A stretch of 36,253 bases of DNA, taken from IMG/VR virus record IMGVR_UViG_2706794674_000008. One strand, written 5' to 3'. Of the stretch, positions 5,383-36,253 are shown piece after piece (within the stretch, counting starts at the first letter, position 1; every line of letters starts with the position of its first letter). The position numbers and the translations under genes are program-made. The stretch is from a virus. Lineage: Duplodnaviria; Heunggongvirae; Uroviricota; Caudoviricetes. The notes under the pieces were generated by a model. That model saw only the letters and a program-made list of their open reading frames with translations, was not told where the DNA came from and made no database searches.

Positions 5383-5519
5383 AATCTTAACTACAATATG
5401 ATTCATTTTGATGATTGTTTCATAAGGAACAGTGAAGTAAGATCTAAGAGGAGTTAAATTTTATACAGTATAATCATAATATTGCAGCAAGGTGGTTATA
5501 ATTGAAAGAATATTTAGAT

Positions 5520-11395: not shown

Positions 11396-11397
11396 TT

Positions 11398-13900: not shown

Positions 13901-13919
13901 ATAAATCATTTATTACAAC

Positions 13920-13946
13920 AGGCTACCTTCGGGTGGCCTTTTTTAT
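13920..13946 (+). terminator. Terminator-like hairpin with T-run
   Basis: aggctacc-ttcg-ggtggcct followed by tttttatt. Confidence 0.35.
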
Positions 13947-14004
13947 TGCTGCGATCCGGATGGTGAGCAGCGTAACTGTCGGAAGACTTAAACCAGGTAC
14001 TAAT

Positions 14005-14769: not shown

Positions 14770-14867
14770 CACATTTGTCAGCTTCCGGATGGGAGCTGGT
14801 GTCAGGGCTGGATAGCTCATTACTCCATCTATTCACAATTACGCAAATTTTTAAGGAATATTTAATT

Positions 14868-16007
14868 ATGGCTGGAAATACCCTGACCGGGTTGATCCCG
14901 ACTATTTATACCGCCCTGGATGTTGTATCCCGTGAGCAGGTAGGTTTTATCCCTGCGGTAGCAAAAAACGCAAAAGCTGACGCCGCAGCAAAAGATCAGA
15001 CGGTAACCGCGCCAGTTGCGCCTGAGGCGAAAACCGAAGATATCGTACCGGGGCCGTCAGCTCCGAATACCGGTGATCAAAATATTGGCACTGTTGATGT
15101 AAAAATTACTAAATCCAAAATGGCACCGGTTAAATGGAATGGTGAAGAACAACTGGCTCTTGGCCCTTCAGGGACTTACAACACCATTCTGGCTGATCAG
15201 TTCAAGCAGGCTTTTCGCGCCCTTGCAAACGAGGTTGAGGCTGATCTTGGTGCGTTGTATTTCGGTGCTTCCCGCGCCGTGGGAACCGCAGGGACAACGC
15301 CGTTTGGTGTTAAAGATGATCTTTCTGATGCTGCTCTGGCTCGTCAGGTTCTGGAGGATAACGGCGCACCGACAACCGATCTGCAGATGGTGCTTGGCTC
15401 CACTGCCATTGCTAATTTGCGCGGAAAACAGTCTGTATTGTTTAAAGTGAATGAATCCGGCACTGAACAGCTACTGCGTGAGGGCGTGTTGGGGCGTCTG
15501 GAGGGATTCAATATTCACAGTTCGGCAGGTGTGAAACGAGCGCCAAAGGTTGCTGCAACTGGTTATCTCGTGAATGGAGAGAAAAAAGAAGGCGATGTTC
15601 TTATTTCCATTGATACTGGTTCGGGGAGTATTTCTGCAGGTCAGATTGTTACGTTCGCTGGTGATCCGAATCAGTATGTTGTGGCAGCAGCGACCAGCAA
15701 TCTGATTACTCTTGCAGCGCCCGGACTGCGTCAGGATCTGGCCGATGATACTGCCATCACAGTTGTTGGGGCCTTTACTGCAAATATGGCGTTTGATCGC
15801 AACGCGTTTCTGCTGGCATCCCGTACTCCGGCAATGCCGGAAGGTGGCGATAATGCTGATGATGTAATGAATGTTACGGACCCGATTTCAGGGATTACGT
15901 TCCAGATTGCACTGTATCGTCAGTATCGCCAGGTGCGCTATGAAGTTGGACTGGCATGGGGTGTTTCATCAGTGAAGCCGGCACATGGTTGTCTGATTCT
16001 TGGTTAA
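14868..16007 (+). CDS. Major capsid protein, 379 aa
   Basis: RBS TAAGGAA then ATG 14868; position after scaffold, followed by terminator; size typical of HK97-fold capsid proteins. Confidence 0.7.
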   Translation: MAGNTLTGLIPTIYTALDVVSREQVGFIPAVAKNAKADAAAKDQTVTAPVAPEAKTEDIVPGPSAPNTGDQNIGTVDVKITKSKMAPVKWNGEEQLALGPSGTYNTILADQFKQAFRALANEVEADLGALYFGASRAVGTAGTTPFGVKDDLSDAALARQVLEDNGAPTTDLQMVLGSTAIANLRGKQSVLFKVNESGTEQLLREGVLGRLEGFNIHSSAGVKRAPKVAATGYLVNGEKKEGDVLISIDTGSGSISAGQIVTFAGDPNQYVVAAATSNLITLAAPGLRQDLADDTAITVVGAFTANMAFDRNAFLLASRTPAMPEGGDNADDVMNVTDPISGITFQIALYRQYRQVRYEVGLAWGVSSVKPAHGCLILG

Positions 16008-16017
16008 ACATTCAAAC

Positions 16018-16038
16018 GGGGCTTCGGCCCCATTTTTA
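16018..16038 (+). terminator. Intrinsic terminator/attenuator after capsid gene
   Basis: ggggc-ttcg-gcccc followed by atttttaat. Confidence 0.5.
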
Positions 16039-16049
16039 ATGGGGGGCAT

Positions 16050-16226
16050 ATGGCCGGATTAACTAAAGAGCAAAGAGCACAGCGTGAAGCCGCACAAAAA
16101 ACGCAAATTGAGTTAGTGGTTATGGTGACCGATTATCAGATGTTTCCCGGCGCACCAACTATCGCTAATGTTCATCCTGATGAAGTTGACAACTGGAAGG
16201 CTATGGGCTGGAAAACTCAGGAGTAA
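16050..16226 (+). CDS. Small hypothetical protein (58 aa), not in ORF track (below length cut-off)
   Basis: ATG 16050 preceded by GGGGGG; in-frame to TAA 16224-16226; fills gap between capsid and head-tail genes. Confidence 0.35.
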   Translation: MAGLTKEQRAQREAAQKTQIELVVMVTDYQMFPGAPTIANVHPDEVDNWKAMGWKTQE

Positions 16227-16229
16227 CAC

Positions 16230-16625
16230 ATGATCACTTACGTGACCTGTGATGACGTTGATAATGCGTTTGGGAACGCCTGGACGAGTGAGAACGCTAA
16301 AAATAAAGCTGTTTTAATGGCTAATGCCTGGCTTAATGGCTTCAACCTGAAAATTAACCCATCCCGTATTCCGGAAGAGGTAAAACTTGCGGGAGCATAT
16401 GCAGCCAGAATTGCCTCATTCGGTAAGTTGTTTCAGCAGAAAAATGATTCTGGCGTTGTTATCAGTAAAGCCGTGTCGGCTGACGGGGTCAGTGTATCGA
16501 AATCATTTTCTGAGTTGCCAGCAAACAGCACTGCATTGCTTGAACCCGATTTACAGCTTGCGATAGCACTGCTGAAACCGTACGGACTTAGTCGCTCACA
16601 AGTCAGGGTTGTGAGGGGGGGATAA
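16230..16625 (+). CDS. Head-tail connector / head completion protein, 131 aa
   Basis: Position in head-to-tail joining block; tight spacing to neighbours. Confidence 0.55.
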   Translation: MITYVTCDDVDNAFGNAWTSENAKNKAVLMANAWLNGFNLKINPSRIPEEVKLAGAYAARIASFGKLFQQKNDSGVVISKAVSADGVSVSKSFSELPANSTALLEPDLQLAIALLKPYGLSRSQVRVVRGG

Positions 16626-17008
16626 TGGGGCTTCGTGAAGAGATTCAGTCAGAGGTTGCCGCTGCTTTTGATGAGGATTTAGCGGACGCCGTGAGTGATT
16701 TTTCTGGTTCTTACGTTACGCACCGGCACTGGGATCCTGTGACGGAAACTGGCGGCGAATCAACCGCAATCTATACCGGGCGAGGCGTGTTGACACGTTA
16801 TAAGCTGGGCAGAATTGATGGGATTAATATTTTGCATGGTGACCTTAAATTAACCGCTCTGGTATGCGAGGTTACGGATAAACCAGCTGTCGACCATATT
16901 ATTGAGATTTATGATCCTGTATCAAGGCAGTTACAACGATACGAGGTAATTACAGCAAGTGTAGATCCTTCCGCATCAGTTTACTCTATCCAGTTAAGGA
17001 GAGCGTAA
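16625..17008 (+). CDS. Head-tail joining (head closure) protein, 127 aa
   Basis: ATG overlaps upstream stop; position. Confidence 0.55.
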   Translation: MGLREEIQSEVAAAFDEDLADAVSDFSGSYVTHRHWDPVTETGGESTAIYTGRGVLTRYKLGRIDGINILHGDLKLTALVCEVTDKPAVDHIIEIYDPVSRQLQRYEVITASVDPSASVYSIQLRRA

Positions 17009-17389
17009 ATGGCAAAGGCATGGGATATAGAACCGTCAATATTTGCCGGGATGATTGAGGAAGATGTAGGGCTGAAGATTCGCTACATCGCTATGCAGAT
17101 TCTTACTGCTATTGATATTGCTGCTCCGGTTGATACCGGACGTTTCAGAAATAACAACCTGGTGTCGTTACAGCATCCCGATTTTGGTATATCTGATAAC
17201 GTGGATCCGAACGGTACGATTGCTGTTCAGCGTGGGATCGGGGTTATTTCGAAAGCTGCAAATTACGGGGTTATTTATATCCAGAATAACCTTCCTTATG
17301 CAGAGGCTCTTGAAAACGGTCATTCACAACAAGCGCCAACTGGCGTGTATGCCAACGCTTTTCATGGTGTTTTACAGGCTTACAAATGA
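17009..17389 (+). CDS. Tail completion / minor tail protein, 126 aa
   Basis: Position; ATG immediately after upstream stop. Confidence 0.55.
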   Translation: MAKAWDIEPSIFAGMIEEDVGLKIRYIAMQILTAIDIAAPVDTGRFRNNNLVSLQHPDFGISDNVDPNGTIAVQRGIGVISKAANYGVIYIQNNLPYAEALENGHSQQAPTGVYANAFHGVLQAYK

Positions 17390-17778
17390 AGTTTACTGAA
17401 ATCAGAAATACGGTTATTTCCAGAATGACGGCACAGACGATTATTGATGGAAAAGACGTATTGTATCCGAACGGGCCAACGTTCGATCCTTCCGGTAAGT
17501 TAATCTGGGCGCGGTTAAGTAATATTCCCGGGCAGGCTGGAGTTAATGAAATTGGCGCGGGGCCGGTTGTTTATCGCACGGGGATAATCATTATTCAGTT
17601 ATTTGTCCCCGCAGGTTCTGGTTCAAAACTCATTACTGAGACAGCCGATAAATTGCGGGAACTGTTTGAGTTTCAGGATGACGATCGTCTCAGTTACCAG
17701 GCTGTTTCCTCAATAGCCGTTGGCGAAAAGAATGGCTGGTTCCAGCTTAATCTTCAAATTCCATATCGCGCGCTCTAG
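17386..17778 (+). CDS. Tail terminator-like protein (gpU-like), 130 aa
   Basis: ATGA overlap with upstream gene; immediately upstream of major tail protein. Confidence 0.5.
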   Translation: MKFTEIRNTVISRMTAQTIIDGKDVLYPNGPTFDPSGKLIWARLSNIPGQAGVNEIGAGPVVYRTGIIIIQLFVPAGSGSKLITETADKLRELFEFQDDDRLSYQAVSSIAVGEKNGWFQLNLQIPYRAL

Positions 17779-17804
17779 CGCAATTAATGACATAGGAGGC
17801 TCCT

Positions 17805-18767
17805 GTGAGTTCAGGTGCAAAGGTTATCTCGGCATTTATCCGGGAGACGGTTGCAGGCACTACGCCAGCAAGTGGTGACTGGAGTTTATTAAAACGCACA
17901 AGCTGGGGAGTAAAACCCACCCAGAATAAAGGCGAAAATAATGAGATTGGTGGCTCCCGGATGGCTCAGGGGGCGACGCCTGGCACTGTGGATGTCGGCG
18001 GTGATGTTGGTACCAAATTTCGCTGGGGTCAACATGATGATTTTCTTGCATCCTGTTTCGGCGCGGAATGGTCAGGCGATTCTCTGACAATGGGGAATGA
18101 GCGAATAACATTTTCTCTGGCGACCTATGCGTCCGATGTCGGAATTGCCTCTGTCGTCAGAGGAGCGCAGGTTGGCTCATGGAAAATGCAGATCCCTAAC
18201 GACGGCGATATTACAGCGACCGTAACCTTTGCCGGACTGGACTGGGAATCAAAGGCCGATGATACGAATTTTATCAAAGGCGAACCTGTGGATAGTGCAG
18301 GAAAGCTACGTTATTCGTTTAAGGAGGTTTCAGCAGTAAGCCTGAATGGTGTTGCCGGAGGTAACGGTTTTTGTATCGACAGTTTTGATATTCAGTTCGA
18401 TAACAAACTCCAGACACAGCGTTGTATCGGGACTGGCTCGCCTTATGCAGGAGCAAATATTCCGACTACTTTTACACCGTCCGGTACGGTGACGCTTTCA
18501 TGGTCTAAAGCCGCGTGGGAAATCTGGAGTAAAACACTGACTGGAGAAACAGTTCCGTTCAGCTTCACGCTTTCGAATGGAGAGGGGGCATACACTTTCA
18601 GTTTCCCGAAGGTTCAGGTGTCAGGTGAATGGCCTGATGGGGGTAATAGCGACATTATCCAGGTTCAATTGAGCATTACCGCAGCAGATGAAGCACCTAC
18701 GATAACCAGAAAAAAAAATTCCCCGGCTGCCGTGATCGCAAAAGCCAGTGCTGAGGCGATTAGTTGA
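17805..18767 (+). CDS. Major tail (tube) protein, 320 aa, GTG start
   Basis: RBS AGGAGG 5 nt before GTG; position before G/T chaperones and tape measure; Thr/Ser/Gly-rich. Confidence 0.65.
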   Translation: MSSGAKVISAFIRETVAGTTPASGDWSLLKRTSWGVKPTQNKGENNEIGGSRMAQGATPGTVDVGGDVGTKFRWGQHDDFLASCFGAEWSGDSLTMGNERITFSLATYASDVGIASVVRGAQVGSWKMQIPNDGDITATVTFAGLDWESKADDTNFIKGEPVDSAGKLRYSFKEVSAVSLNGVAGGNGFCIDSFDIQFDNKLQTQRCIGTGSPYAGANIPTTFTPSGTVTLSWSKAAWEIWSKTLTGETVPFSFTLSNGEGAYTFSFPKVQVSGEWPDGGNSDIIQVQLSITAADEAPTITRKKNSPAAVIAKASAEAIS

Positions 18768-18815
18768 TTTTCCGTTATTCCTCCTGTGGTACTGCCCTAC
18801 AGGGGGACGCATTGA

Positions 18816-19277
18816 ATGAGGTTATGGATGTTTATTCTTAATCAGAAAATTATCATTGGTGGAGAACGCTGGTTTACGCCAATGAAGGACTTAAAACCTG
18901 TAGACGGGTTAAAACTGTTGGTGGCAAGCAGCGATAACGATCAGTATCGCTCCCGTAATGCATTAATCCGTCGCCACATTGAGAAAATGGATGCCAGTTT
19001 GCACGTCGGAACGAAGGAGTTTGATATTTCAAAGGTTTCCGAGGTGGATTCTGTTGATGATTTACTCATTGATAATGCCGCTCGTTATCTGCTGAAAGAC
19101 TGGAAAGGGGTTGGTGAACTGGTTAATGGTGTTGAGGTTGCACTGGAATATACGGCAGAACGAGGGATCGCGCTGCTTAAGCAGAATCCAGAGTTGTACT
19201 GGCAGATCCTTGCAGAAGCAGCCAGCATCGCCCAGGGTAAAGAGCAGCAGAAGCAGGATACGATAAAAAAGCCATAG
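18816..19277 (+). CDS. Tail assembly chaperone (gpG-like)
   Basis: Position upstream of tape measure; ends ...DTIKKP* with slippery heptamer at its 3' end; alternative start ATG 18882. Confidence 0.6.
   Translation: MRLWMFILNQKIIIGGERWFTPMKDLKPVDGLKLLVASSDNDQYRSRNALIRRHIEKMDASLHVGTKEFDISKVSEVDSVDDLLIDNAARYLLKDWKGVGELVNGVEVALEYTAERGIALLKQNPELYWQILAEAASIAQGKEQQKQDTIKKP
19265..19271 (+). promoter_or_regulatory. Candidate programmed -1 ribosomal frameshift site A_AAA_AAG
   Basis: Heptamer a aaa aag in the G frame 4 nt before the G stop; the -1 frame is open from here through 19585. Confidence 0.55.
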
Positions 19278-19585
19278 CTGCCCAGCGGTGGTTATCGGAG
19301 TTCGGGGGAGAAAGGGGGGAAAAGGCAAGATGGAAGCGAGAAAAACTCAGGTTGCCACCGATACCGGAACCAGAAATAGACCCGGTGCTTAAGGAGTTGT
19401 TGTACGCCTATTCGGTAATATCCCGTGCCCGACGTTATGCTGGAATGGCTGGGGTGCCTTTGCCTTTATCTCTGACAGAGATAAATGAATATTTAGCCAC
19501 TCATCCGGTATTGATTGAGCGCGATGAATTTGAAGCAGTGATCTTTGCACTGGATGACCAGTATTTTCAGGAGCAGTGTGTGTAG
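19265..19585 (+). CDS. gpT-like extension expressed as G-T fusion via -1 frameshift
   Basis: -1 frame open from slippery site to TAG 19583-19585, no canonical start with RBS of its own. Confidence 0.5.
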   Translation, partial: KKAIAAQRWLSEFGGERGEKARWKREKLRLPPIPEPEIDPVLKELLYAYSVISRARRYAGMAGVPLPLSLTEINEYLATHPVLIERDEFEAVIFALDDQYFQEQCV

Positions 19586-19705
19586 TTGTTAATTACGTAC
19601 ACTCTGTTACAGAGATGTGATGGTGTCTTTAATTAAATCGATGATGCTCCTGGAGAAAAGCATTGCGTGGCCTCGTAATCGCTATATCTACTATTATGTC
19701 GCCTG

Positions 19706-19733
19706 AAACCCACTTCGCGGTGGGTTTTTTGTT
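19706..19733 (+). terminator. Terminator-like hairpin in the T-to-tape-measure spacer
   Basis: aaacccac-ttcgcg-gtgggttt followed by tttgttg. Confidence 0.4.
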
Positions 19734-19750
19734 GTCAGGAGTTTTAATAA

Positions 19751-22700
19751 ATGGCAGAGCAAACCTCGCGTCTCGCAATAATTATTGATAGCACTGGAGC
19801 GAAAAATAATGCTGACAATCTGACCTCCTCATTAGTCAAAATGACGCAGGCTGGGGAAACTGCTGCAAATAGCGCAGGGAAAGTGACTAAGGCAACAGAA
19901 GATGAGAAGAACGCGCTCGCAAAATTAAAAGCAGCTATTGATCCAGTTGGTGCCGCAATTGATACTGTCGGTCGACGCTATTCTGAATTAAAGAAATTTT
20001 TCGATAAAGGGCTTATTGATAAAGAAGAATATGAATTTCTTGTCCGTAAACTTAATGAAACCACAGAGGAATTGAGCGGGGTTGCGCAAGCGCAGAGAGA
20101 AGCCGAGAAGGCCGGAAAACTTGCTGCCGCCCAGCAGGAAGCGCAGGCTCAGGCCTTTCAAAGAATGCTGGACAAGATCGACCCTCTGGCTGCGGCGCTA
20201 AGAAATCTTGAACAACAGCATGATGAACTTAATGCTGCGTTTGCATCCGGGAAAATAAATGGTTCTCAGTTTGAGAATTATAGCCGAAAAATACAGGAAA
20301 CACGGCGAGAGCTTACCGGAGAGGCTCAGGCAGAGCGAGAAGCAGCAAAAGCGCATGATGAACAGGTTGTTGCTTTGCAACGTCTGATTGCTCAACTTGA
20401 TCCTGTCGGAACTGCTTTTAATCGTCTGGTAGAACAACAGAAACAGCTCAATGAAGCAAAAGCTAAGGGGATGCTTTCTCCTGAAATGTATGAGGAGCTT
20501 TCTGGAAAACTTCGTGCTATGCGGAGTGAGCTTGAGGTTACTCAATCACAATTAAGCAAAACCGGAATGTCGGCAAAACAAACGGCTTTTGCTATGCGCA
20601 TGTTGCCTGTACAAATGACGGATATTGTTGTTGGGTTGTCCACTGGTCAGTCGCCATTTATGGTGTTAATGCAGCAGGGCGGCCAGCTAAAAGATATGTT
20701 CGGTGGGATTGGCCCGGCGATCAAAGGTGTAGGTTCTTATGTGCTGGGATTAATTAATCCTTTTACCCTGGCCGCAGCAGCCGTTGGGGTCTTAGGACTG
20801 GCTTACTATAAAGGCTCTCAGGAGCAGGACGAATTTAATAAATCTCTTATTCTTACCGGAAATCAGTTGGGGACAACCAGCGGGCAATTGGGCGATATAG
20901 CTCAACGTGCCGGGAATGCGGCTGATTCGACAACTGGTGCTGCGGCGGCAGTATTAAATCAGCTTGTGCGTTCGGGAAAGGTAGCGAGCAGTTCGCTGGA
21001 GCAAGTGACGACAGCGATAGTAAAAACGAGCGAAGTAACAGGAATATCAACCGAACAACTGGTTAATGACTTCAATGAAATTGCAAAGGATCCTGTCAGT
21101 GCCATATCAAAACTTAATGATCAGTACCATTTTCTGACACTTGCGACTTATAACCAGATTAAGGCGCTACAGGATGAAGGGAACCAGCAGGAGGCCGCCC
21201 GCATTGCGACAGAAGAATACTCATCCTCAATGATCCAGCGCACCAACCAGATTAAAGAAAATCTTGGTTATCTTGAGACTGCATGGAAAGCTGTCGCAGA
21301 CTCCGCAAAATGGGCATGGGATTCCATGCTGGATATTGGCCGTGAGGCCTCCCTTGATCAAAAAATCTCAGATGTTCTCCGTCAAATTGATGAAATAGAA
21401 AAAAATACCCGACCCGGAGTTTTCGGGTTAGGTGGCATTGGAGATGGCGGAGCTCAAAATAAAAGGCTGGCACGATTAAAGCAGCAATTGGGCGTACTTC
21501 AAGCAGAAAAAATTGCTCAGGACGTACTAAATTCATCAATAAACGATTACAACAAGCGACAACAGGAAGGAATTGAACTCAGACAGAGAGCAGATGCCTT
21601 TTCAAAACAATATCAGACCCGGGAGCAGCAGAGAGCTAGTGAACTTGCAAAACTGGAAAAGCTAAAGAATCAGTATTCAAAGGAAGAATATAATAATCTT
21701 ATCGCTCAAATAAATGAGCGTTATAAAGATCCAAAGCAACCAAAGGCGAAAGGTTATTCTGATGATGCAGCCCAACGAATGATTGATCATCTGAATCAAC
21801 AGAATGCGTTACTAAGTTCACAAGCTGAGTTGACCGTTAAATTAAGTTCCTCTGAACAGGAACTGGTTAAGTGGCGTCAGCGGATTGCCGACCTAGAGTC
21901 ACGACCATCATCGAAATTAACCCAGGATCAGAAATCGCTTCTCTTACACCGGGAAGAAATAACCACGTTGATGGAGAAAAATGTTGCGATTGAAAAAAAT
22001 AACAGGCTAATCAAGGAATCCGCCGAAATAACAGCATGGCGTGATTCATTGCAGGCTTCGATTGATAATCGTCAGCAGGGGTATGATATTCAGATTGCTG
22101 GTTATGGGGTTGGCGATAAAAATCAGCAACGCCAGCAGGAATTACTGCGGATTGAACATGGATATAACAATCAGCGTCTGCAACTTGAACGTGACTATGC
22201 AGATAAATCCCGTGGAATGTCAGATCATGTTTTTCAAGAGAAAATGCAGGCTCTGAATGATGCTCTGGAACGGGAAAAAGAAATTGTCAGACAGAAAAAC
22301 GAGCAGCTCGATATTCAGGCAGGAGACTGGGTTAGTGGTGCCTCCCAGGGATTCAATAACTGGCTGGATGACACTAAGGATATCAGTGAGCAGATAAAAT
22401 CAACCACGACTCAGATGTTTGATGGGATGACCGATGCGCTGGGTGATTTTGTCACGACAGGCAAGGCAAATTTTCGTTCTTTCGCTACTTCCGTGATTTC
22501 GGATCTTAGTCGAATAGCATTAAAGGCTTCAATTACTGGGATTTTCGACAGCATTAGTAACAGTTCTTCTGGGGGGATTTTAGGAACTATCGGGAGTGCT
22601 ATTAGTAAATTTATTCCGAATGCAAAGGGCGGTGTTTATGAGTCTCCGTCATTGAGCACGTATTCGAACGGTATTTATGATTCCCCGCAATTTTTTGCTT

Positions 22701-22984
22701 TTGCAAAAGGGGCTGGTGTTTTTGGTGAGGCTGGACCGGAAGCCATTATGCCATTAACACGAACTTCCGATGGTTCTCTTGGTGTCAGAGCTATTAATAG
22801 TAAAAGTGGTAATGGAGGCGGAGATATTACCTATGCCCCTGTATACCAAATCACTATTCAAAATGACGGCCAGAATGGAGAGATTGGCCCTCAGGCAATA
22901 AAAGCACTTATGGGGATGGTTGATCAGCGGGTGCAGGGCAATCTGTTAAATATGCGACGTGATGGGGGAATGTTAAGTGGCTAA
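19751..22984 (+). CDS. Tail tape measure protein, 1077 aa
   Basis: Very long Ala/Gln/Glu-rich coiled-coil protein with central hydrophobic segment, between G/T and gpM. Confidence 0.85.
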
Positions 22985-23315
22985 TACGGAAGAATTTCAC
23001 TGGTTACCAGAGGATGGAATGAAAACAGAAAATAAACCATCGATAAAAACTGTAAGATTTGGTGATGGTTATGAGCAACGAAGTCCAAATGGACTTAATC
23101 ATTCTCTGCGCGTTTTCACCTGTGATTTCAAAGTTGAGGCGAATGAACGTGATTCATTTGAAAAATTTTTAGCCCGGCATGAAGGCTATAAATCTTTTTT
23201 TTGGCGCCCGCCGGGTATTAACAGAAAAATCAGAGTGGTGTGTCGAACGTGGTCAGCGACAGAACATATCACCTATACCGATTTTTCGTGTCAGTTTGAC
23301 GAAGTGGTGATCTGA
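22977..23315 (+). CDS. M: Minor tail protein M (lambda gpM-like), GTG start
   Basis: ...[12 protein letters not shown]...KSFFWRPP... resembles lambda M from memory; overlaps tape measure stop. Confidence 0.8.
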
Positions 23316-24013
23316 TGCAGGACATACAACAGGAAACGCTGAATGAATGCATTCGTGCGGAGCAGTCGGCCAGCGTGGTGCTCTGGGAAATCGACCTGAC
23401 CGAGGTAGGCGGGGATCGCTACTTTTTCTGCAATGAGCAGAACGAGAAAGGAGAGTCTGTCACCTGGCAGAGTCGGCAGTATCAGGCCTATCCCATTCAG
23501 GGGAGTGGATTTGAGATGAACGGCAAAGGTGCCAGTGCAAGGCCAACGCTGAAAGTCTCTAATCTGCACGGCATGGTCACCGGGATGGCGGAAGACCTGC
23601 AGAGTCTGGTCGGCGGAACGGTGGTCAGGCGTAAGGTTTACGCCCGTTTTCTGGATGCGGTGAACTTCGTCAACGGAAACAGTGACGCCGATCCGGAGCA
23701 GGAGGTGATCAGCCGCTGGCGTATTGAGCAGTGCAGCGAACTGAGCGCGGTCAGTGCCTCCTTTGTACTGTCCACGCCGACGGAAACGGACGGCGCTGTT
23801 TTTCCGGGGCGCATCATGCTTGCTAATACCTGCACCTGGACCTATCGCGGTGATGAGTGCGGTTATCACGGTCCGGCTGTCGCGGATGAATATGACCAGC
23901 CAACGTCCGATATCACGAAGGATAAATGCAGCAAATGCCTGAGCGGTTGTAAGTTCCGCAATAACGTCGGCAACTTTGGCGGCTTCCTTTCCATTAACAA
24001 ACTTTCGCAGTAA
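23315..24013 (+). CDS. L: Minor tail protein L (lambda gpL-like), 232 aa
   Basis: Same length as lambda L; TGATG overlap with M; C-terminal Cys cluster. Confidence 0.85.
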   Translation: MQDIQQETLNECIRAEQSASVVLWEIDLTEVGGDRYFFCNEQNEKGESVTWQSRQYQAYPIQGSGFEMNGKGASARPTLKVSNLHGMVTGMAEDLQSLVGGTVVRRKVYARFLDAVNFVNGNSDADPEQEVISRWRIEQCSELSAVSASFVLSTPTETDGAVFPGRIMLANTCTWTYRGDECGYHGPAVADEYDQPTSDITKDKCSKCLSGCKFRNNVGNFGGFLSINKLSQ

Positions 24014-24017
24014 TCCC

Positions 24018-24761
24018 ATGACAGAGACAGAATCAGCGATTCTGGCGCACGCCCGGCGATGTGCGCCAGCGGAGTCGTGCGGCTTCGTGGTGAGAACACC
24101 GGAGGGGGAAAGATATTTTCCCTGCGTGAATATTTCCGGTGAGCCGGAGGAGTATTTCCGGATGGCTCCGGAGGACTGGCTGCAGGCAGAGATGCAGGGT
24201 GAGATTGTGGCGCTGGTCCACAGCCACCCCGGTGGTCTGCCCTGGCTGAGTGAGGCCGACCGGCGGCTGCAGGTGCAGAGTGATTTGTCGTGGTGGCTGG
24301 TCTGCCGCGGGGCGATTCACAAGTTCCGCTGTGTGCCGCATCTCACCGGGCGGCGCTTTGAGCACGGGGTGACGGACTGTTACACGCTGTTCCGGGACGC
24401 TTACCATCTGGCGGGAATTGAGATGCCAGATTTTCATCGTGAGGACGACTGGTGGCGTAATGGTCAGAATCTCTATCTGGATAATCTGGAGGCTACAGGG
24501 CTGTATCAGGTGCCGTTGTCAACGGCGCAGCCGGGCGATGTGCTGCTGTGCTGTTTTGGTTCATCGGTGCCGAATCATGCCGCCATTTACTGTGGTGACG
24601 GCGAGCTGCTGCACCATATTCCTGAACAACTGAGCAAACGAGAGAGGTACACCGACAAATGGCAGCGACGCACACACTCCCTCTGGCGTCACCGGGCATG
24701 GCACGCATCTGCCTTTACGGGGATTTGCAGCGATTTGGCCGCCGCATCGACCTTCGTGTGA
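24018..24761 (+). CDS. K: Tail tip assembly protein K (lambda gpK-like, NlpC/P60 + JAB-like)
   Basis: MTETESAILAHARRCAPAESCGFV...HSHPGG motif; 3' end overlaps I by about 100 nt so exact end is uncertain. Confidence 0.75.
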   Translation: MTETESAILAHARRCAPAESCGFVVRTPEGERYFPCVNISGEPEEYFRMAPEDWLQAEMQGEIVALVHSHPGGLPWLSEADRRLQVQSDLSWWLVCRGAIHKFRCVPHLTGRRFEHGVTDCYTLFRDAYHLAGIEMPDFHREDDWWRNGQNLYLDNLEATGLYQVPLSTAQPGDVLLCCFGSSVPNHAAIYCGDGELLHHIPEQLSKRERYTDKWQRRTHSLWRHRAWHASAFTGICSDLAAASTFV

Positions 24762-25306
24762 AAACGGGGGCCGAAGCCATCCGGGCACTGGCCACACAGC
24801 TCCCGGCATTTCGTCAGAAACTGAGCGACGGCTGGTATCAGGTGCGCATTGCCGGGCGTGATGCAGGCGAAAATGAATTATCTGCCCGTCTTAATGAACC
24901 GCTGGCAAATGGTGCCGTGATCCACATCGTTCCGCGTCTGGCGGGTGCCAAAAGTGGCGGTGTGTTTCAGGCGGTGCTGGGTGCGGCGCTGATTGCGGTG
25001 GCATGGTGGAACCCTGTGGGCTGGCTGGGGGCCGCGGCTGTATCGGGTATGTATGCAGCAGGGGCCAGTATGATCCTGGGTGGTGTGGCGCAGATGCTGG
25101 CACCGAAAGCCAGGACGCCCACGGCAGCCAGTACAGATAACGGCAAACAGAACACGTATTTCTCGTCACTGGATAACATGGTTGCCCAGGGTAATGTTCT
25201 GCCTGTTCTGTACGGGGAAATGCGCGTGGGGTCACGTGTGGTTTCTCAGGAGATCAGCACGGCAGACGAAGGGGATGGTGGTCAGGTTGTGGTGATTGGT
25301 CGCTGA
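24659..25306 (+). CDS. I: Tail tip assembly protein I (lambda gpI-like)
   Basis: MAATHTLPLASPGMARICLYGDL... and C-terminal ...GEMRVGSRVVSQEISTADEGDGGQVVVIGR match lambda I as I recall it. Confidence 0.8.
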   Translation: MAATHTLPLASPGMARICLYGDLQRFGRRIDLRVKTGAEAIRALATQLPAFRQKLSDGWYQVRIAGRDAGENELSARLNEPLANGAVIHIVPRLAGAKSGGVFQAVLGAALIAVAWWNPVGWLGAAAVSGMYAAGASMILGGVAQMLAPKARTPTAASTDNGKQNTYFSSLDNMVAQGNVLPVLYGEMRVGSRVVSQEISTADEGDGGQVVVIGR

Positions 25307-25324
25307 TGCAAAATGTTTTATGTG

Positions 25325-25344
25325 AAACCGCCTGCGGGCGGTTT
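25325..25344 (+). promoter_or_regulatory. Stem-loop in I-J intergenic region
   Basis: aaaccgcc-tgcg-ggcggttt (8-bp stem); no clean T-run. Confidence 0.3.
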
Positions 25345-25359
25345 TGTCGTTTATGGAGC

Positions 25360-28888
<3,529 letters not shown>

Positions 28889-28906
28889 ATTTTATAACCC
28901 AGAACG

Positions 28907-28932
28907 GGCGTCAGAAATGACGCCTTTTTTAT
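28907..28932 (+). terminator. Intrinsic terminator after J
   Basis: ggcgtca-gaaa-tgacgcc followed by ttttttatt. Confidence 0.55.
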
Positions 28933-28954
28933 TGCAGAAAAGCGAGAGGTAATT

Positions 28955-29554
28955 ATGCGTAAACTTTATGCCGCCATTTTGTCCGCAGCCATTTGTCTGG
29001 CCGTATCCGGTGCGCCTGCATGGGCGTCTGAACATCAGTCCACGCTGAGCGCGGGGTATCTTCATGCCCGGACGAACGTTCCCGGCAGTGATGATCTGAA
29101 CGGGATTAACGTGAAATACCGTTATGAGTTTACGGACACACTGGGGATGGTGACGTCGTTCAGCTATGCAGGAGACAAGAATCGCCAGCTGACCCATTAC
29201 AGCGATACCCGCTGGCATGAAGATTCCGTGCGTAACCGCTGGTTCAGCGTGATGGCGGGGCCGTCTGTACGCGTGAATGAATGGTTCAGCGCGTATGCGA
29301 TGGCGGGTGTGGCTTACAGCCGTGTGTCGACTTTCTCCGGGGATTATCTCCGCGTAACTGACAACAAGGGGAAAACGCACGACGTGCTGACCGGAAGTGA
29401 TGACGGTCGCCACAGCAACACGTCTCTGGCGTGGGGAGCTGGCGTGCAGTTTAACCCGACCGAATCCGTGGCCATTGATATTGCTTATGAAGGCTCCGGC
29501 AGTGGCGACTGGCGCACTGACGGTTTCATCGTGGGTGTCGGTTATAAATTCTGA
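28955..29554 (+). CDS. lom: Lom-family outer membrane protein (Ail/Lom beta-barrel), 199 aa
   Basis: Signal peptide, alternating-residue beta strands, C-terminal ...GVGYKF; position between J and stf as in lambda. Confidence 0.85.
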   Translation: MRKLYAAILSAAICLAVSGAPAWASEHQSTLSAGYLHARTNVPGSDDLNGINVKYRYEFTDTLGMVTSFSYAGDKNRQLTHYSDTRWHEDSVRNRWFSVMAGPSVRVNEWFSAYAMAGVAYSRVSTFSGDYLRVTDNKGKTHDVLTGSDDGRHSNTSLAWGAGVQFNPTESVAIDIAYEGSGSGDWRTDGFIVGVGYKF

Positions 29555-29580
29555 TTAGCCAGGTAACACAGTGTTATGAC

Positions 29581-29608
29581 AGCCCGCCGGTTCAGGCGGG
29601 CTTTTTTG
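29581..29608 (+). terminator. Intrinsic terminator after lom
   Basis: agcccgcc-ggttca-ggcgggct followed by tttttt. Confidence 0.55.
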
Positions 29609-29618
29609 TGGGGTGAAT

Positions 29619-32600
29619 ATGGCAGTAAAGATTTCAGGTGTACTGAAAGACGGCACAGGAAAACCGGTACAGAACTGCACAATCCAGCTGAAAGCAAAAC
29701 GTAACAGCACCACGGTGGTGGTGAACACGCTGGCCTCAGAAAATCCGGATGAAGCCGGGCGTTACAGCATGGACGTTGAGTACGGTCAGTACAGCGTTAT
29801 TCTGTTGGTGGAAGGATTCCCGCCGTCACATGCCGGGACCATCACCGTGTATGAAGATTCCCGACCCGGTACGCTGAATGATTTTCTCGGTGCCATGACG
29901 GAGGATGATGCCCGTCCGGAGGCACTGCGACGTTTTGAACTGATGGTGGAAGAGGTGGCGCGTAACGCGTCCGCAGTGGCACAGAACACGGCAGCCGCGA
30001 AGAAGTCAGCCAGCGATGCCAGCACATCAGCCCGTGAGGCGGCAACCCATGCGACTGATGCTGCAGGCTCAGCACGCGCAGCCAGCACGTCAGCCGGACA
30101 GGCCGCGTCGTCGGCTCAGTCAGCGTCATCCAGCGCAGGAACGGCATCAGCAAAGGCCACTGAAGCATCAAAAAGTGCTGCCGCTGCAGAGTCCTCAAAA
30201 AGCGCGGCGGCCACCAGTGCCGGTGCCGCGAAAACGTCTGAAACGAATGCGGCAGCGTCACAACAATCAGCAGCCACTTCTGCATCCACCGCGACCACGA
30301 AAGCGTCAGAAGCTGCCACCTCAGCCCGGGATGCGTTGGCTTCAAAAGAGGCGGCAAAATCATCAGAAACGAGCGCAGCCTCGAGCGCCAGTAGTGCAGC
30401 TTCCTCGGCTACGGCGGCAGGCAATTCCGCGAAGGCGGCAAAAACGTCCGAGACGAACGCCAAGGCTTCTGAAACAGCAGCGGAACAGAGTGCCTCCGCA
30501 GCAGCAGGCTCAAAAACAGCGGCTGCGTCGTCCGCCAGTGCCGCGTCAACAAGTGCCGGGCAGGCCTCAGCCAGTGCTAGCGCCGCCGGAAAATCGGCAG
30601 AAAGCGCCGCATCGTCCGCTTCAACAGCCACAACGAAGGCTGGCGAAGCCACTGAACAGGCCAGTGCAGCAGCGAGGTCTGCTTCCGCAGCGAAGACATC
30701 CGAGACGAACGCGAAAGCGTCGGAAACCAGCGCAGAATCCTCAAAAACGGCTGCCGCATCGTCCGCCAGTTCGGCGGCGTCATCGGCCTCATCGGCGTCT
30801 GCTTCAAAAGATGAGGCGACCAGACAGGCGTCCGCAGCGAAGGGCAGCGCCACGACAGCATCCACGAAGGCGACAGAGGCAGCTGGTAGTGCGACGGCAG
30901 CAGCTCAGAGCAAAAGTACGGCGGAATCCGCGGCAACGCGCGCTGAGACAGCGGCAAAACGGGCAGAGGATATTGCATCCGCCGTGGCGCTTGAGGATGC
31001 GAGCACGACGAAAAAGGGGATAGTCCAGCTAAGCAGCGCGACCAACAGCACATCTGAAACGCTTGCCGCGACACCAAAGGCAGTAAAATCAGCCTATGAC
31101 AATGCAGAGAAACGTCTGCAGAAAGACCAGAATGGCGCTGATATACCCGATAAGGGACGCTTCCTGAACAACATTAACGCGGTCAGTAAAACAGACTTTG
31201 CTGATAAGCGTGGTATGCGTTATGTGCGGGTTAACGCTCCTGCAGGTGCAATATCTGGAAAATATTACCCTGTTGTTGTTATGCGTTCTGCTGGCTCAGT
31301 AAGCGAACTGGCATCAAGGGTCATTATCACCACGGCAACGCGAACCGCAGGCGATCCGATGAATAACTGCGAGTTTAACGGATTTGTTATGCCTGGTGGC
31401 TGGACTGACAGGGGGCGTTATGCTTATGGCATGTTCTGGCAATATCAAAACAATGAACGAGCCATCCACTCAATAATGATGAGTAATAAGGGCGATGATT
31501 TGCGCTCTGTGTTCTATGTTGATGGCGCTGCTTTCCCTGTTTTTGCGTTTCTCGAAGATGGCCTGTCAATATCCGCACCTGGTGCTGATCTCGTTGTTAA
31601 TGATACGACCTATAAGTTTGGGGCAACAAATCCGGCGACTGAATGTATCGCGGCGGACGTTATCCTTGATTTTAAGAGTGGGCGTGGTTTTTATGAGTCC
31701 CATTCGTTAATCGTTAACGATAACTTGTCGTGCAAAAAACTTTTTGCCACAGACGAAATTGTAGCGCGTGGTGGTAATCAGATTCGAATGATAGGTGGGG
31801 AGTATGGGGCATTATGGCGTAATGATGGCGCTAAAACTTACCTGCTGCTTACCAATCAAGGTGATGTTTATGGTGGATGGAATACATTAAGACCGTTTGC
31901 TATTGATAACGCAACCGGCGAACTGGTTATTGGAACCAAACTGTCTGCAAGTCTGAACGGTAACGCATTGACAGCAACAAAGCTGCAAACGCCAAGACTG
32001 GTTTCTGGGGTTGAGTTTGATGGTTCAAAAGATATTACTTTAACCGCCGCGCATGTGGCTGCTTTTGCCAGAAGGGCAACGGATACATATGCCGATGCGG
32101 ATGGTGGCGTTCCCTGGAATGCCGAATCAGGCGCTTACAATGTCACCCGCTCTGGCGACAGCTATATTCTGGTTAACTTCTATACCGGAGTCGGAAGTTG
32201 CCGGACCCTGCAGATGAAGGCGCATTACAGAAATGGAGGTCTGTTCTACCGTTCCTCAAGAGATGGCTATGGTTTTGAGGAAGGCTGGGCAGAAGTTTAT
32301 ACCTCGAAAAATCTTCCACCAGAAAGCTACCCAGTCGGCGCACCAATCCCGTGGCCATCAGATACCGTTCCGTCTGGTTATGCCCTGATGCAGGGGCAGA
32401 CTTTTGACAAATCTGCTTACCCGAAACTTGCAACCGCTTATCCGTCAGGCGTGATCCCTGATATGCGTGGCTGGACGATTAAGGGCAAACCTGCCAGTGG
32501 TCGGGCCGTATTGTCTCAGGAACAGGACGGCATTAAATCGCATACCCACAGCGCCAGCGCATCCAGTACGGATTTGGGGACGAAAACCACATCGTCGTTT

Positions 32601-33017
32601 GATTACGGCACTAAATCCACGAATAACACTGGTGCGCATACCCATAGTTTAAGTGGCAGCACGAATGCAGCTGGTAATCACAGCCATAGAGATGGCCGTC
32701 GATTTAACCCCAGTGTTTTTAAAGATACTTATCAATATGGTTATACAAGCTCAGGTCAAAATACCTGGGGTGTACAAGGCTCAGTAGGTATGTCTACGGG
32801 GTGGTTAGCTAATACCAGTACAGATGGTAATCATAGCCACTCACTGTCCGGCACAGCAGCATCTGCAGGTGCACACGCGCATACTGTCGGTATTGGTGCT
32901 CATACGCACTCCGTTGCGATTGGTTCACATGGACACACCATCACCGTTAACGCTGCTGGTAACGCGGAAAACACCGTCAAAAACATCGCATTTAACTATA
33001 TTGTGAGGCTTGCATAA
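29619..33017 (+). CDS. stf: Side tail fibre protein (Stf/StfR-like), about 1132 aa
   Basis: [26 protein letters not shown]... N-terminus as in lambda Stf; long Ala/Ser/Thr-rich repeat region; C-terminal His-x-His repeats ([53 protein letters not shown]). Confidence 0.9.
29960..31010 (+). repeat. Low-complexity Ala/Ser/Thr-rich coding repeats inside stf, with three near-identical AAKTSETNA(A/K)AS units
   Basis: Repeated KTSETNA-containing blocks in translation; source of multiple spurious ORFs in other frames/strand. Confidence 0.7.
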
Positions 33018-33592
33018 TGGCATTCAGAATGAGTGAACAACCACGGACCATAAAAATTTATAATCTGCTGGCCGGAACTAATGAATTTATTGGTGAAGGT
33101 GACGCATACATTCCGCCTCATACAGGTCTGCCAGCAAACAGTACCGATATTGCACCGCCAGATATTCCGGCTGGCTTCGTGGCTGTTTTCAACAGTGATG
33201 ATGCATCGTGGCATCTTGTTGAAGACCATCGGGGTAAAACAGTTTATGACGTGGCATCAGGGGACGCGTTATTTATTTCTGAACTCGGTCCGTTACCGGA
33301 AAATGTTACCTGGTTATCGCCGGAAGGGGAATATCAGAAGTGGAACGGCACAGCCTGGGTGAAAGATGCAGAAGCAGAAAAACTATTCCGGATCCGGGAG
33401 GCGGAAGAAACAAAAAACAGCCTGATGCAGGTAGCCAGTGAGCATATTGCGCCGCTTCAGGATGCGGTAGATCTTGAGATCGCAACGGAGGAAGAGAAAT
33501 CGTTACTGGCCGCATGGAAGACATATCGGGTGTTGTTGAATCGTGTTGATACATCACTATCTCCAGATATCGAGTGGCCAAGTCAACCATAA
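33017..33592 (+). CDS. tfa: Tail fibre assembly chaperone (Tfa-like), 191 aa
   Basis: TAATG overlap with stf stop; [48 protein letters not shown]... typical of lambda Tfa. Confidence 0.85.
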
Positions 33593-33598
33593 ATCAAT

Positions 33599-33619
33599 AT
33601 CCCCTGCAATGCAGGGGAT
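33599..33619. terminator. Hairpin between convergent tfa and sopB (possible bidirectional terminator)
   Basis: atcccctgc-aat-gcaggggat, perfect 9-bp stem. Confidence 0.45.
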
Positions 33620-33624
33620 AATTC

Positions 33625-34590
33625 TTAATTATCAGTAGATTGTTCCTCTAGTAACAACTCAATTTTGCTTAGTATTTCTTTAGATATTTTGCGGCTATCA
33701 ATTTTTATAGTTACAAAATTCCCTTTATATCTAGCCGTGATCCCTTCCCCATATTTTTTCTCGTCTTTTGTTTTTTCCTCGTCGCCAACCAGAACAGAGT
33801 CAGATAATATTTGTATAATCCGTGAAGCTTCTAAATCCTCGCCGTTTTTTTTTATTGTCAGAAGATGATGAGCAGCATTGCTCATGGCAGCCATGTTTTT
33901 TTTGTAAATCTTAAACAAAGAATCTCCAGCACGAGCTGACAGTTCTCCTGGATGATTGAAGATAGCTAATATATCTTTTGGTAGACCAGCTGTATTAATA
34001 CAGCGAGTGATAATATTTCTATCTATATTTTCAGCCTCGGCCAATGCTTTAACGTTACCATCAAAGTCATTTAGCTTGCGTAAGTATCTCTTTCCTCTTT
34101 CGTATGCACTAATAGGCCTATAATCGTTACCAATTTGGGATAACCAATGCATCTGTTCATCGTCGAGATCACCAATTAAGACGCGATAGTCACATCCTGT
34201 TAATATCGCTGCTTTTCTTCTACGTGAGCCGTCAGCGACTTCAACGATTCCAGATACTTTTCTGGCGAAAGCTGGATTTTGTTGTCCAGACGTTAGAAAA
34301 GATGGGATTAAATCGGCTAGAGAGGATTCATTTAATAAATCTTGATCGCGTTCATTACCTAGCCATACCATTGTTGCCATTTCAACTTTATCTGCGGGAA
34401 TTGTCTCTAACTTAAAGTTAACATTACGTCCGCATACTGGCAAAGTTATGCTGTTACCGGTTAATGAACTCAGTTGACGTTTTAAATCACCAACCATAGG
34501 TGATACGGGCTGATGTTCAGGGGCATGATGATTATTACTCATAATGCGATTAATATCTGGAGCATTTTTTAGAAGAGAGCGCTGTTTCAT
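33625..34590 (-). CDS. sopB: Plasmid partition protein SopB (ParB-type CBP), 321 aa
   Basis: ...ITLPVCGRNVNF...WLGNERDQDLL...LIPSFLTSGQQNPAFARKVSGIVEVADGSRRRKAAILT...NDYRPISAYERG... closely parallels F-plasmid SopB from memory. Confidence 0.85.
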   Translation of the reverse strand: MKQRSLLKNAPDINRIMSNNHHAPEHQPVSPMVGDLKRQLSSLTGNSITLPVCGRNVNFKLETIPADKVEMATMVWLGNERDQDLLNESSLADLIPSFLTSGQQNPAFARKVSGIVEVADGSRRRKAAILTGCDYRVLIGDLDDEQMHWLSQIGNDYRPISAYERGKRYLRKLNDFDGNVKALAEAENIDRNIITRCINTAGLPKDILAIFNHPGELSARAGDSLFKIYKKNMAAMSNAAHHLLTIKKNGEDLEASRIIQILSDSVLVGDEEKTKDEKKYGEGITARYKGNFVTIKIDSRKISKEILSKIELLLEEQSTDN

Positions 34591-35756
34591 TATTCGTTCT
34601 CCCAGCGAGGTTTTATTAGATCATCAAAAATTTCTCTGCAAACAGGGTCCCATATAGAAACAGCATTTCTCCATGCATTCAATGTTGAACGTTGGTTTGC
34701 TGCTTGTTCAAATACTGTTCTCATTTTTATCTGGCCTTTACCTACTTCATCGGTAACGCGTACAACCTGACGTAATACCATTGATCCCCATGTATTTCTT
34801 ATTTGTTCTTCCATCCATCGTGATTGATTCCCTGTAGTGAGACTATATTTAGTCAGAAGTAAGCGAACGGTTGGCTCAAATCCACCTAGGTCAACGCTTT
34901 CCAATAGATCGAGAAGCATTGTGAAAAACTGTAGAACAGAAGCGTAATCAAATAATTCTGCAGGTGTAGCAACAACAATAACGTCAGCGGCACAAACAAC
35001 GTTAATGGTTCCTGTACCGAGGTTCGGAGCACTATCTATAACGATAACATCGTAGTTATCCCAAACTGATTCAATAGCTGCGCGCAGCATAAGGTGTGGA
35101 GGATGAGGCAATTTACCCTGAGCATGATATTGCATGAGATCTGTTTCTATACGATGTAAAGCTAGGCAGCTAGGGATAATGTCTAGCCCAGGCCAACATG
35201 TTGGCTTTATAGCATATTCAGCGTTATCGCGTTCTCCTAAGTAAAATGGCAGTAAAGTATCCTCGGCATGGATATGTAAATCAGGAACATAACCGTGATA
35301 CATAGAGGCTGTACCTTGAGGATCGTTACCTTCAACCAAAAGAACACGATGACCTTGTAATGCTAACCATTGAGCTTGATGTACCGCAGACGATGTTTTA
35401 TAAACGCCGCCTTTGTGTGACATAACGGCAAGAACAACAGGGTTTTTATCTTGTGGTCGTTGGTTTGGGTTGCCAAAAACTGCTCGCATACTGTTGATTT
35501 GATCTATGGTATAACCAGCACGACGTTCAATTCTTCCTCTCATTTCAAAGTCAGGTGCAGGTAAACGCCCGCTCTTCTCAGCATCTCTAATTGCTTGAGG
35601 AGTTACACCAATTAAATCTGCTACTTCAGTAATACCCCATCGGCGGGTGATACGCCGAGCTTCAGGACTATCATCACCGAATTGAGCGATAGCAATTGCT
35701 TGGGTCATTTCTTGACCTCTCGTAACACAATCTTGCAATAGCTTTTTCAAAGACAT
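34590..35756 (-). CDS. sopA: Plasmid partition ATPase SopA (ParA-type, Walker-type), 388 aa
   Basis: Same length as F SopA; deviant Walker A box in SHKGGVYKTSSAV, IDSAPNLG, NDPQGTASMYHG; RBS GGAGA before ATG. Confidence 0.9.
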   Translation of the reverse strand: MSLKKLLQDCVTRGQEMTQAIAIAQFGDDSPEARRITRRWGITEVADLIGVTPQAIRDAEKSGRLPAPDFEMRGRIERRAGYTIDQINSMRAVFGNPNQRPQDKNPVVLAVMSHKGGVYKTSSAVHQAQWLALQGHRVLLVEGNDPQGTASMYHGYVPDLHIHAEDTLLPFYLGERDNAEYAIKPTCWPGLDIIPSCLALHRIETDLMQYHAQGKLPHPPHLMLRAAIESVWDNYDVIVIDSAPNLGTGTINVVCAADVIVVATPAELFDYASVLQFFTMLLDLLESVDLGGFEPTVRLLLTKYSLTTGNQSRWMEEQIRNTWGSMVLRQVVRVTDEVGKGQIKMRTVFEQAANQRSTLNAWRNAVSIWDPVCREIFDDLIKPRWENE

Positions 35757-35764
35757 ACTGTCAT

Positions 35765-35858
35765 CTCCAGCTTGTAACTTTGCTTAATAATTAAATCTTT
35801 GCTTATTTCTAGCAAATTTGCATGAAAAAGGCAAAGCAAAAAGAAAAACGCAAAGGAG
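35765..35858 (-). promoter_or_regulatory. sopA promoter-operator with four CTTTGC/GCAAAG hexamers
   Basis: CTTTGC at 35768-35773 and 35787-35792, GCAAAG at 35831-35836 and 35850-35855, immediately upstream of sopA; F SopA is reported to bind CTTTGC repeats in its operator. Confidence 0.5.
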
Positions 35859-36043
35859 AATTTTTAAGCTAAATCATCTTTTGTTCCCCTCCCGAAATGC
35901 ATAAAACGAACAACAACATAATCATAAGTAATTGATATTTATTATATTTTTTGAAGAAAGGAAATCATGTAAAACTAGGGAAACATGATAAGAATCATCA
36001 ATGAGATACGTTTTCTCTATTAGTTCTCCCAACCTTACCAATA

Positions 36044-36175
36044 CAAGAACACAAATAAAGAACACAAAAACTAAGTAATGATGCAAACATAATAAAGAAC
36101 ACAAATAAAGAATTAAAGCTAAATGTTAAATAAAGCAGTACACAAAATGAGAATATTACACTAAATAAGAACACT
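36044..36175. repeat. AT-rich direct repeats of AAGAACA(C) motif (two identical 16-mers aagaacacaaataaag) leading into the terminal palindrome
   Basis: 16-mer at 36045-36060 and 36095-36110; further AAGAACA copies at 36167 and inside palindrome arm (36179). Confidence 0.45.
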
Positions 36176-36253
36176 AATCAAGAACATAACGAAACATAAT
36201 TCCCCATTATACGCGCGTATAATGGGGAATTATGTTTCGTTATGTTCTTGATT
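36176..36253. repeat. Perfect 78-bp palindrome (2 x 39 bp) with alternating-CG centre; candidate protelomerase target site (telRL/tos-like)
   Basis: aatcaagaacataacgaaacataattccccattatacgc|gcgtataatggggaattatgtttcgttatgttcttgatt; the central CCATTATACGCGCGTATAATGG matches the phage N15 telO core as I recall it; palindrome runs to the last base of the window. Confidence 0.7.

Follow-up and report, generated by a model that had tools for sequence, protein, structure and literature searches.

The 36,253-nucleotide stretch of viral DNA studied here (IMGVR_UViG_2706794674_000008, Caudoviricetes), which is called the window at its full length, is the complete record CWTO01000036.1 of the draft assembly GCA_001250535.1. 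Near its right end it carries sopB and sopA, a pair of plasmid partition genes that lie between the tail-fibre assembly gene tfa and the end of the record. The features of this end are given below.

33017-33592, plus strand: tfa, tail-fibre assembly, the last gene of the late (virion) operon; open reading frame (ORF) of 191 amino acids, with Pfam Caudo_TAP in identical sibling loci
33598-33620, both strands: bidirectional terminator-like hairpin with a 10-bp stem, a 3-nt loop, six G-C pairs and T-rich tails on both strands
33625-34590, minus strand: sopB, 321 amino acids, a ParB-type centromere-binding protein
34590-35756, minus strand: sopA, 388 amino acids, a type Ia ParA ATPase with an N-terminal DNA-binding domain
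35778-35855, minus strand: putative sopAB promoter/operator, a hexamer pattern upstream of sopA
36040-36186, plus strand: sub-telomeric AT-rich direct repeats of 13-bp period, AATAAAGAACACA, in 5 to 7 copies, about 290 bp upstream of sopA
36176-36253, both strands: sop-side hairpin telomere of the linear prophage, a perfect palindrome of 78 bp with which the record ends

One base is common to the TAA stop codon of sopA and the ATG of sopB, and this 1-nt overlap is the same as in plasmid F. In profile searches, SopA residues 1-387 of 388 match the NCBIfam SopA equivalog NF010259 with 734.3 bits (cut-off, 725 bits), and SopB residues 2-317 match the NCBIfam plasmid ParB model PRK13698 with 408 bits (cut-off, 274 bits). 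The Pfam domain SoPB_HTH, a helix-turn-helix (HTH) domain, is found on a protein identical to the SopB of the window, and residues 152-316 align to F SopB over its domains for DNA binding and dimerisation (PDB 3MKY, E = 1e-38). The window holds these features of the Sop (F/N15) sub-family of type Ia ParABS partition systems: a SopA-type ATPase, a SopB-type HTH protein encoded directly after sopA and a hexamer operator. The first-pass annotation had described both proteins as close to those of F, and both genes are indeed intact, but the nearer relatives are those of the linear plasmid prophage N15: SopA is 93% identical to its N15 counterpart and 74% to that of F, with full-length alignments to both, and SopB is 73% and 50% identical, respectively. 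Judged by these protein sequences, sopBA is to be classed as an N15-type rather than an F-type Sop system. A second gene of the ParB fold, a ynaK-like gene with a ParB/Srx N-terminal domain, is present in the Rac-type part of the window (see below) and is unrelated to partition by SopB.

The order and orientation of late tail genes, terminator hairpin, sopB, sopA and telomere (telRL) are the same in N15, which also has a hexamer operator and no array adjoining sopB. Compared with N15, the SopB of the window is 21 amino acids shorter at its C-terminus and has a different recognition-helix segment, and sopB is preceded by a lambda-type tfa, which is common in the Escherichia coli clade, instead of the UmuD-like gene 26. 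SopA and SopB are hallmark genes of telomere phages (PMC12042878), and the N15-like phage-plasmids of Escherichia and Shigella have a conserved layout with mosaic tail genes (bioRxiv 10.1101/2025.09.12.675607).

Exact or nearly exact copies of the module are found in public plasmids. In the E. coli plasmid pCAVP367-48 (NZ_CP145143.1), which is 47.6 kb long and was deposited as linear, SopA and SopB have no amino acid difference from those of the window, and in the E. coli plasmid pB16EC0268-3 (CP088810.1) the 3.25-kb stretch of tfa, sopB, sopA and sub-telomere has 100% DNA identity to the window; over tfa, sopB, sopA and the sub-telomeric DNA the two plasmids are 99.8-100% identical to it. The same stretch is 97-99.8% identical to more than 12 other PLSDB records, which are all non-mobilisable and have an N15-like gene content, and the exact SopB occurs in 1474 indexed blocks of a contig collection. 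The partition module is thus an already known one, an exact copy of modules annotated in public plasmids. As a side observation, pCAVP367-48 (L027) has a macro-domain gene at 43567-44469, between stf and tfa, which is absent from the window.

The upstream region of sopA contains four exact CTTTGC/GCAAAG hexamers, at 35778, 35797, 35831 and 35850. Their distances from the sopA ATG are -99, -80, -46 and -27, and those in F are -100, -81, -62 and -28, so that the four F-like operator hexamers reported at the first reading are all located, with a spacing near that of F. The palindrome GCAAATTTGC (35812-35821) holds two one-mismatch copies of the hexamer at the remaining positions, one of them at -61. 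The operator is composed as follows.

35855-35850 and 35836-35831, minus strand: exact CTTTGC on the sop strand
35817-35812, minus strand: ATTTGC on the sop strand, one mismatch
35821-35816, minus strand: GCAAAT on the sop strand, one mismatch
35802-35797 and 35783-35778, minus strand: exact GCAAAG on the sop strand
35815-35810, minus strand: predicted -35 element TTGCTA, read from the sequence, for which a consensus scan stayed under threshold
35792-35787, minus strand: predicted -10 element AATTAT, read in the same way and likewise under the threshold of the scan
35768-35765, minus strand: ribosome-binding site GGAG

The operator consists of three hexamer pairs with 28-bp spacers and has a 19-bp period. 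A cluster of four hexamers arises in none of 300 shuffles of the whole window and in one of 5000 local shuffles. The ParA operators of F, N15 and phiKO2 have the same architecture as the hexamer pairs of the window (PMC8465637), although the window has two perfect inverted hexamers where those of N15 are degenerate.

On the other side of the module, sopB and tfa are convergent, and 32 bp separate the end of tfa from the sopB stop codon. The hairpin between them, for which a 9-bp stem had been given, is present at this convergence, but its stem has 10 bp. It folds with a free energy of -17.2 kcal/mol (z = -4.2), which is equalled in none of 200 shuffles, and a terminator stem-loop is annotated at the corresponding position of N15 (22085-22113). 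The tfa-sopB junction is found in at least 17 PLSDB records and in many draft contigs, and tfa is 100% identical to N15-like plasmid contigs compared with 92% to the chromosomal tfaR of NB4833. The back-to-back arrangement of virion and plasmid-maintenance modules, which the first-pass annotation had stressed, does exist but is no peculiarity, since N15 shows the same layout in canonical form. Inside tfa, an Rfam match to IS009 scores above the gathering score (33360-33558, plus strand, 199 bits).

N15-like (Ravinvirus-like) phage-plasmids are temperate lambdoid phages that persist as prophages in the form of a hairpin-ended linear plasmid. In the window, positions 36214 and 36215 flank the tip of the telomere, at a distance of 459 bp from the start codon of sopA, and 36215-36253 is the fold-back copy of 36176-36214. 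The telomere has the core CCATTATACGCGCGTATAATGG, exactly the telO core found in N15 telRL, and the homologous bases are annotated as 'telR site' in phage PhiR46_1. An intact telRL was considered as the origin of the palindromic end and is ruled out by contigs that read through telRL into telN. In these sibling contigs, which run sopA-telRL-telN (L006, L007, L019 and L025), the telRL arms differ beyond about 21 bp from the centre, unlike the end of the window, where the arm runs on into a precise reverse-complement copy of itself. The end of the record is therefore a read-through of a covalently closed hairpin, and this fold-back shows that, in the culture that was sequenced, the element existed as a linear plasmid with hairpin ends. 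Because the telomere follows sopA, sopBA is the last gene pair of the element, and it is this telomere that the initial description of the sopBA position, otherwise correct, had lacked.

Two observations on other records touch the same ends. Several N15-like PLSDB records of 61-94 kb, including CP088810.1, were deposited as 'circular' at 1.3 to 2 times the unit length. In their mirror-image duplications, two telN genes and likewise two sopA-sopB pairs are arranged head to head, and the records are evidently long-read assemblies that ran through the hairpin ends. The contig L019 (GCA_964019885.1, CAXHUB010000001.1) has, at 3.767-3.788 Mb of its 3.81 Mb, a complete-looking N15-like element with repA, telN, telRL, sopA, sopB and tail genes. 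This element, no more than about 45 kb from the end of the 3.8-Mb contig, may represent a plasmid that was concatenated to a chromosome contig, or else a more interesting case.

The F sopABC system (ParABS-F) is similar to that of the window in its type Ia ParA with an HTH, in its overlapping sopA and sopB and in its CTTTGC operator, with the 19-bp period, the 28-bp inverted spacing and near-equal distances from the ATG. It differs in the tandem 43-bp sopC repeats that stand directly after sopB, where nine GGGACCNNGGTCCC sites were found; the window has none. An F-type sopC site GGGACCNNGGTCCC with up to two mismatches, an N15-type palindrome GTGCGACCNNGGTCGCAC with up to three mismatches and the core GACCNNGGTC, which is common to the site types, are all absent from the window, and there is no 43-bp tandem array anywhere in it, including after sopB, so the earlier statement that no sopC array adjoins sopB holds. 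A lone TGCGACC half-site is present at 26411. Among recurring palindromes searched for de novo in the window (arms of at least 7-8 bp, spacer of 0-4), only terminator-like hairpins were recovered. The family AAACCGC...GCGGTTT (2023, 2366 and 25325) was considered as a centromere and rejected, as it looks like G+C-rich terminator hairpins instead. The first-pass annotation had proposed a search of the whole element for inverted repeats resembling the N15 sites, and this search, run on the window, found nothing. Two runs of N interrupt the window.

1396-1663: scaffold gap of 268 N, about 246 bp in close relatives
25360-25612: scaffold gap of 253 N in the Rac-type part, where the true distance is 130 bp in the chromosome of NCTC9082

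These runs were also considered as deliberately masked features that hide sites, and this was rejected. They are present in the original record, their sizes are off the true distances, and the relatives have no site there, the motif being absent from the closest relatives across both gaps.

The N15 Sop system, with genes 27/28 (sopB/sopA) and the inverted repeats IR1-IR4, was reportedly described by Ravin and Lane in 1999. Its centromere is formed by four dispersed palindromes, IR1 to IR4, the sequences of which are printed in PMC7205306. The sites of N15, and those of the sibling plasmid pCAVP367-48, are the following.

N15, 33481: inside repA
N15, 35932: between Q and gene 41
N15, 41126: just upstream of an annotated promoter
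N15, 45563: in the annotated stem-loop after gene 58
pCAVP367-48, 7873: in repA
pCAVP367-48, 10316: after Q
pCAVP367-48, 15526, 18536 and 18756: at intergenic spots of the late region

Thus pCAVP367-48, whose SopB is identical to that of the window, has five GTGCGACCNNGGTCGCAC palindromes in N15-equivalent positions, and pB16EC0268-3 has the same five, with none in the tail-sop arm of either plasmid. In N15 as in the sibling plasmids, GTGCGACCNNGGTCGCAC sites occur within repA, downstream of Q and in the late region, four in N15 and five in the siblings. In about 20 sibling loci, no palindrome of the GTGCGACCNNGGTCGCAC type occurs in the arm that runs from the tail gene J to the telomere. Read from these plasmids, the centromeres of this lineage would be in repA, just after Q and at late-regulatory intergenic spots, 25 to 40 kb from sopBA, and for this plasmid lineage the earlier suggestion that the sites are dispersed elsewhere as in N15 is correct. 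The cognate centromere would be missing from the window because the site-bearing part of the plasmid is off this scaffold. The protelomerase gene telN and a RepA-type repA are also absent from the window, according to its ORF list and its synteny with Rac-type prophages, and both adjoin the identical sop module in L006, L007, L019, L025 and pCAVP367-48.

Two other explanations of the missing centromere bear on these results. The first is that the sub-telomeric 13-bp repeats are themselves a SopB binding array, as 5 to 7 direct repeats so near to sopA could suggest; their AGAACA cores stand at 36046, 36059, 36096, 36168 and 36181. They are not sopC-like, they do not resemble the N15 palindromes and they lack the GACCNNGGTC core, while sibling plasmids with the same SopB have five bona fide palindromes of the N15 type. 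Analogous GGAACATA repeats lie next to the telomere of N15 at the equivalent place on its sopA side, which argues for a telomere-associated role. The repeats may be protelomerase-associated or take part in telomere protection, and their being an adjacent centromere is highly improbable. The second explanation is that sopBA is an orphan or decaying remnant without function, and the lack of a centromere site, telN and repA on the scaffold would fit it. Against it, both ORFs are full length by the equivalog profiles, the operator is intact, complete linear plasmids encode identical proteins, the exact SopB recurs throughout the contig collection, and the fold-back end implies that this DNA existed as a hairpin-ended replicon. 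This explanation has scarcely any probability left.

The composition of the scaffold accounts for the lack of sites in the window. Positions 1 to about 26344 correspond to a Rac-type chromosomal lambdoid prophage with trkG, the ynaK-like gene, ydaY and a P22-like capsid gene, and 11000-25359 is 99.75% identical to the chromosomal prophage of NCTC9082. At least 80% of window 11254-36253 is found in one place in 289 E. coli genomes, of which those listed are chromosomes; the Rac-type module is also found in induced Rac-like phages, and the head module of the window is in no PLSDB plasmid. The rest, 26345-36253, comprises the 3' part of J, lom, stf, tfa, sopB, sopA and the telomere, and has zero mismatches to the N15-like plasmid contigs L010 and L013. 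While pCAVP367-48 and pB16EC0268-3 have lambda-type head and tail genes, telN, repA and the five palindromes, the window is Rac-type upstream of 26.3 kb and has none of these. The passage from one lineage to the other takes place here.

26345-26562, plus strand: switch interval in tail gene J, 218 bp identical in the Rac-type and plasmid lineages

To the left of this interval, 25843-26344 has 23 mismatches to L010 and L013, and 25843-26562 has one mismatch to the NCTC9082 prophage, which diverges from 26563. Before it there is a patchwork, with 25613-25842 plasmid-like and 25843-26344 Rac-like. The N gap at 25360-25612, after which the J gene call of the NCBI record begins exactly at 25613, was considered as the join between chromosome and plasmid and rejected, as the NCTC9082 chromosome matches both of its flanks collinearly at 99.6% and the switch is at 26345-26562.

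The join in J is probably an assembly chimera. Short-read assemblers that collapse bubbles make such a patchwork from two copies that are 96-98% identical, and a chimera is favoured because the 218-bp repeat exceeds any short-read k-mer and because the patchwork resembles collapsed bubbles. Alternatively, the scaffold may be physically real, an N15-like plasmid arm that recombined in J with a Rac-type prophage, either by a double crossover, which would produce a hybrid telomere phage that has trkG and the head and tail genes of the Rac type, or by a single crossover with a chromosomal prophage, which would leave a chromosome arm with a hairpin telomere at its end. The tail genes of lambdoid and N15-like elements are notoriously mosaic, the patchwork at 25613-26562 (plasmid, Rac and plasmid-type) could represent gene-conversion tracts, and the switch is in contiguous sequence, inside the 218 bp that the two lineages have in common. 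Against a real recombinant, the Rac-type head module is in no PLSDB plasmid, the J segment that spans the crossover is in no closed E. coli genome at 99% or above, and in the sibling draft contig L010 an arm of 100% identity is linked to the usual tail genes and backbone of an N15-like element. The scaffold also has its N gaps in repeat-prone prophage regions, and the patchwork can also come from assemblers of the kind described. A real recombinant is unlikely but still has an appreciable probability.

Taken together, the region is very probably the module for plasmid maintenance at the end of an N15-like 'telomere' phage-plasmid, the centromeres of which are off the scaffold. Three points weigh against this interpretation and the chimera that goes with it. 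The scaffold has no centromere site, telN or repA of its own, and its membership of an intact plasmid rests on the identity with sibling plasmids. The switch in J is in contiguous sequence and not at an N gap, and the repeat of 218 bp is shorter than a typical paired-end insert, so a correct resolution is possible. The last point concerns SopB. Its presumed recognition-helix segment (residues ~190-215, window 33945-34020), DRNIITRCINTAGLPKD, is nearer to SRKIITRCINTAKLPKS of F than to DRNIVNRCMNTAGLPRE of N15, and within it RNIITRCINTA is nearer to RKIITRCINTA of F than to RNIVNRCMNTA of N15. The sites that co-occur with SopB of the window type are N15-type (GCGACC) and not GGGACC. Because the recognition helix is F-like, the specificity of this SopB for the N15-type palindrome is taken from this co-occurrence and not from the protein; the residues that set F or N15 site specificity must, on this comparison, be sought elsewhere than in the recognition-helix segment.

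By analogy with the known systems, we infer how SopA and SopB would bind and function in this phage-plasmid. The genes sopA and sopB would form a single operon, with transcription heading away from the telomere, and the hairpin at 33598-33620 would end both convergent transcripts, that of the late operon and that of sopAB. As in type Ia partition systems generally, SopB dimers would bind the 18-bp palindromes GTGCGACCNNGGTCGCAC, the dispersed centromeres, and nucleate partition complexes there, and nucleoid-bound SopA-ATP would then segregate the SopB-bound plasmid copies. SopA dimers on the CTTTGC hexamer pairs, which overlap the predicted promoter, would repress sopAB with the help of SopB, as shown for F (PMC8465637) and expected here from the identical geometry.

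In the Rac-type part of the window, the potassium transporter gene trkG, a cargo gene, is at ~5502-6977 and the ynaK-like gene at 7115-7903. An Rfam match above the gathering score identifies the small RNA STnc100 in the same region (2686-2872, plus strand, 87 bits).

The biological weight of the locus is small, as it adds one further copy of a well-studied partition module. The apparent 'missing centromere' would be a consequence of the scaffold composition and of the known dispersal of N15 sites, and the scaffold calls for caution, since it probably fuses chromosomal prophage and linear-plasmid DNA through a tail gene common to both. The palindrome with which the record closes is a hairpin-telomere signature, by which ends of this kind can be identified in draft assemblies. 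Only the junction in J, if true, would be new. In the case of a hybrid telomere phage, the element would package with P22-like head genes, carry trkG and have lost the three late-region centromere sites. In the case of a crossover with a prophage near the terminus, it would represent a naturally linearised E. coli chromosome with a phage hairpin cap, in which sopBA stands 0.46 kb from the tip.

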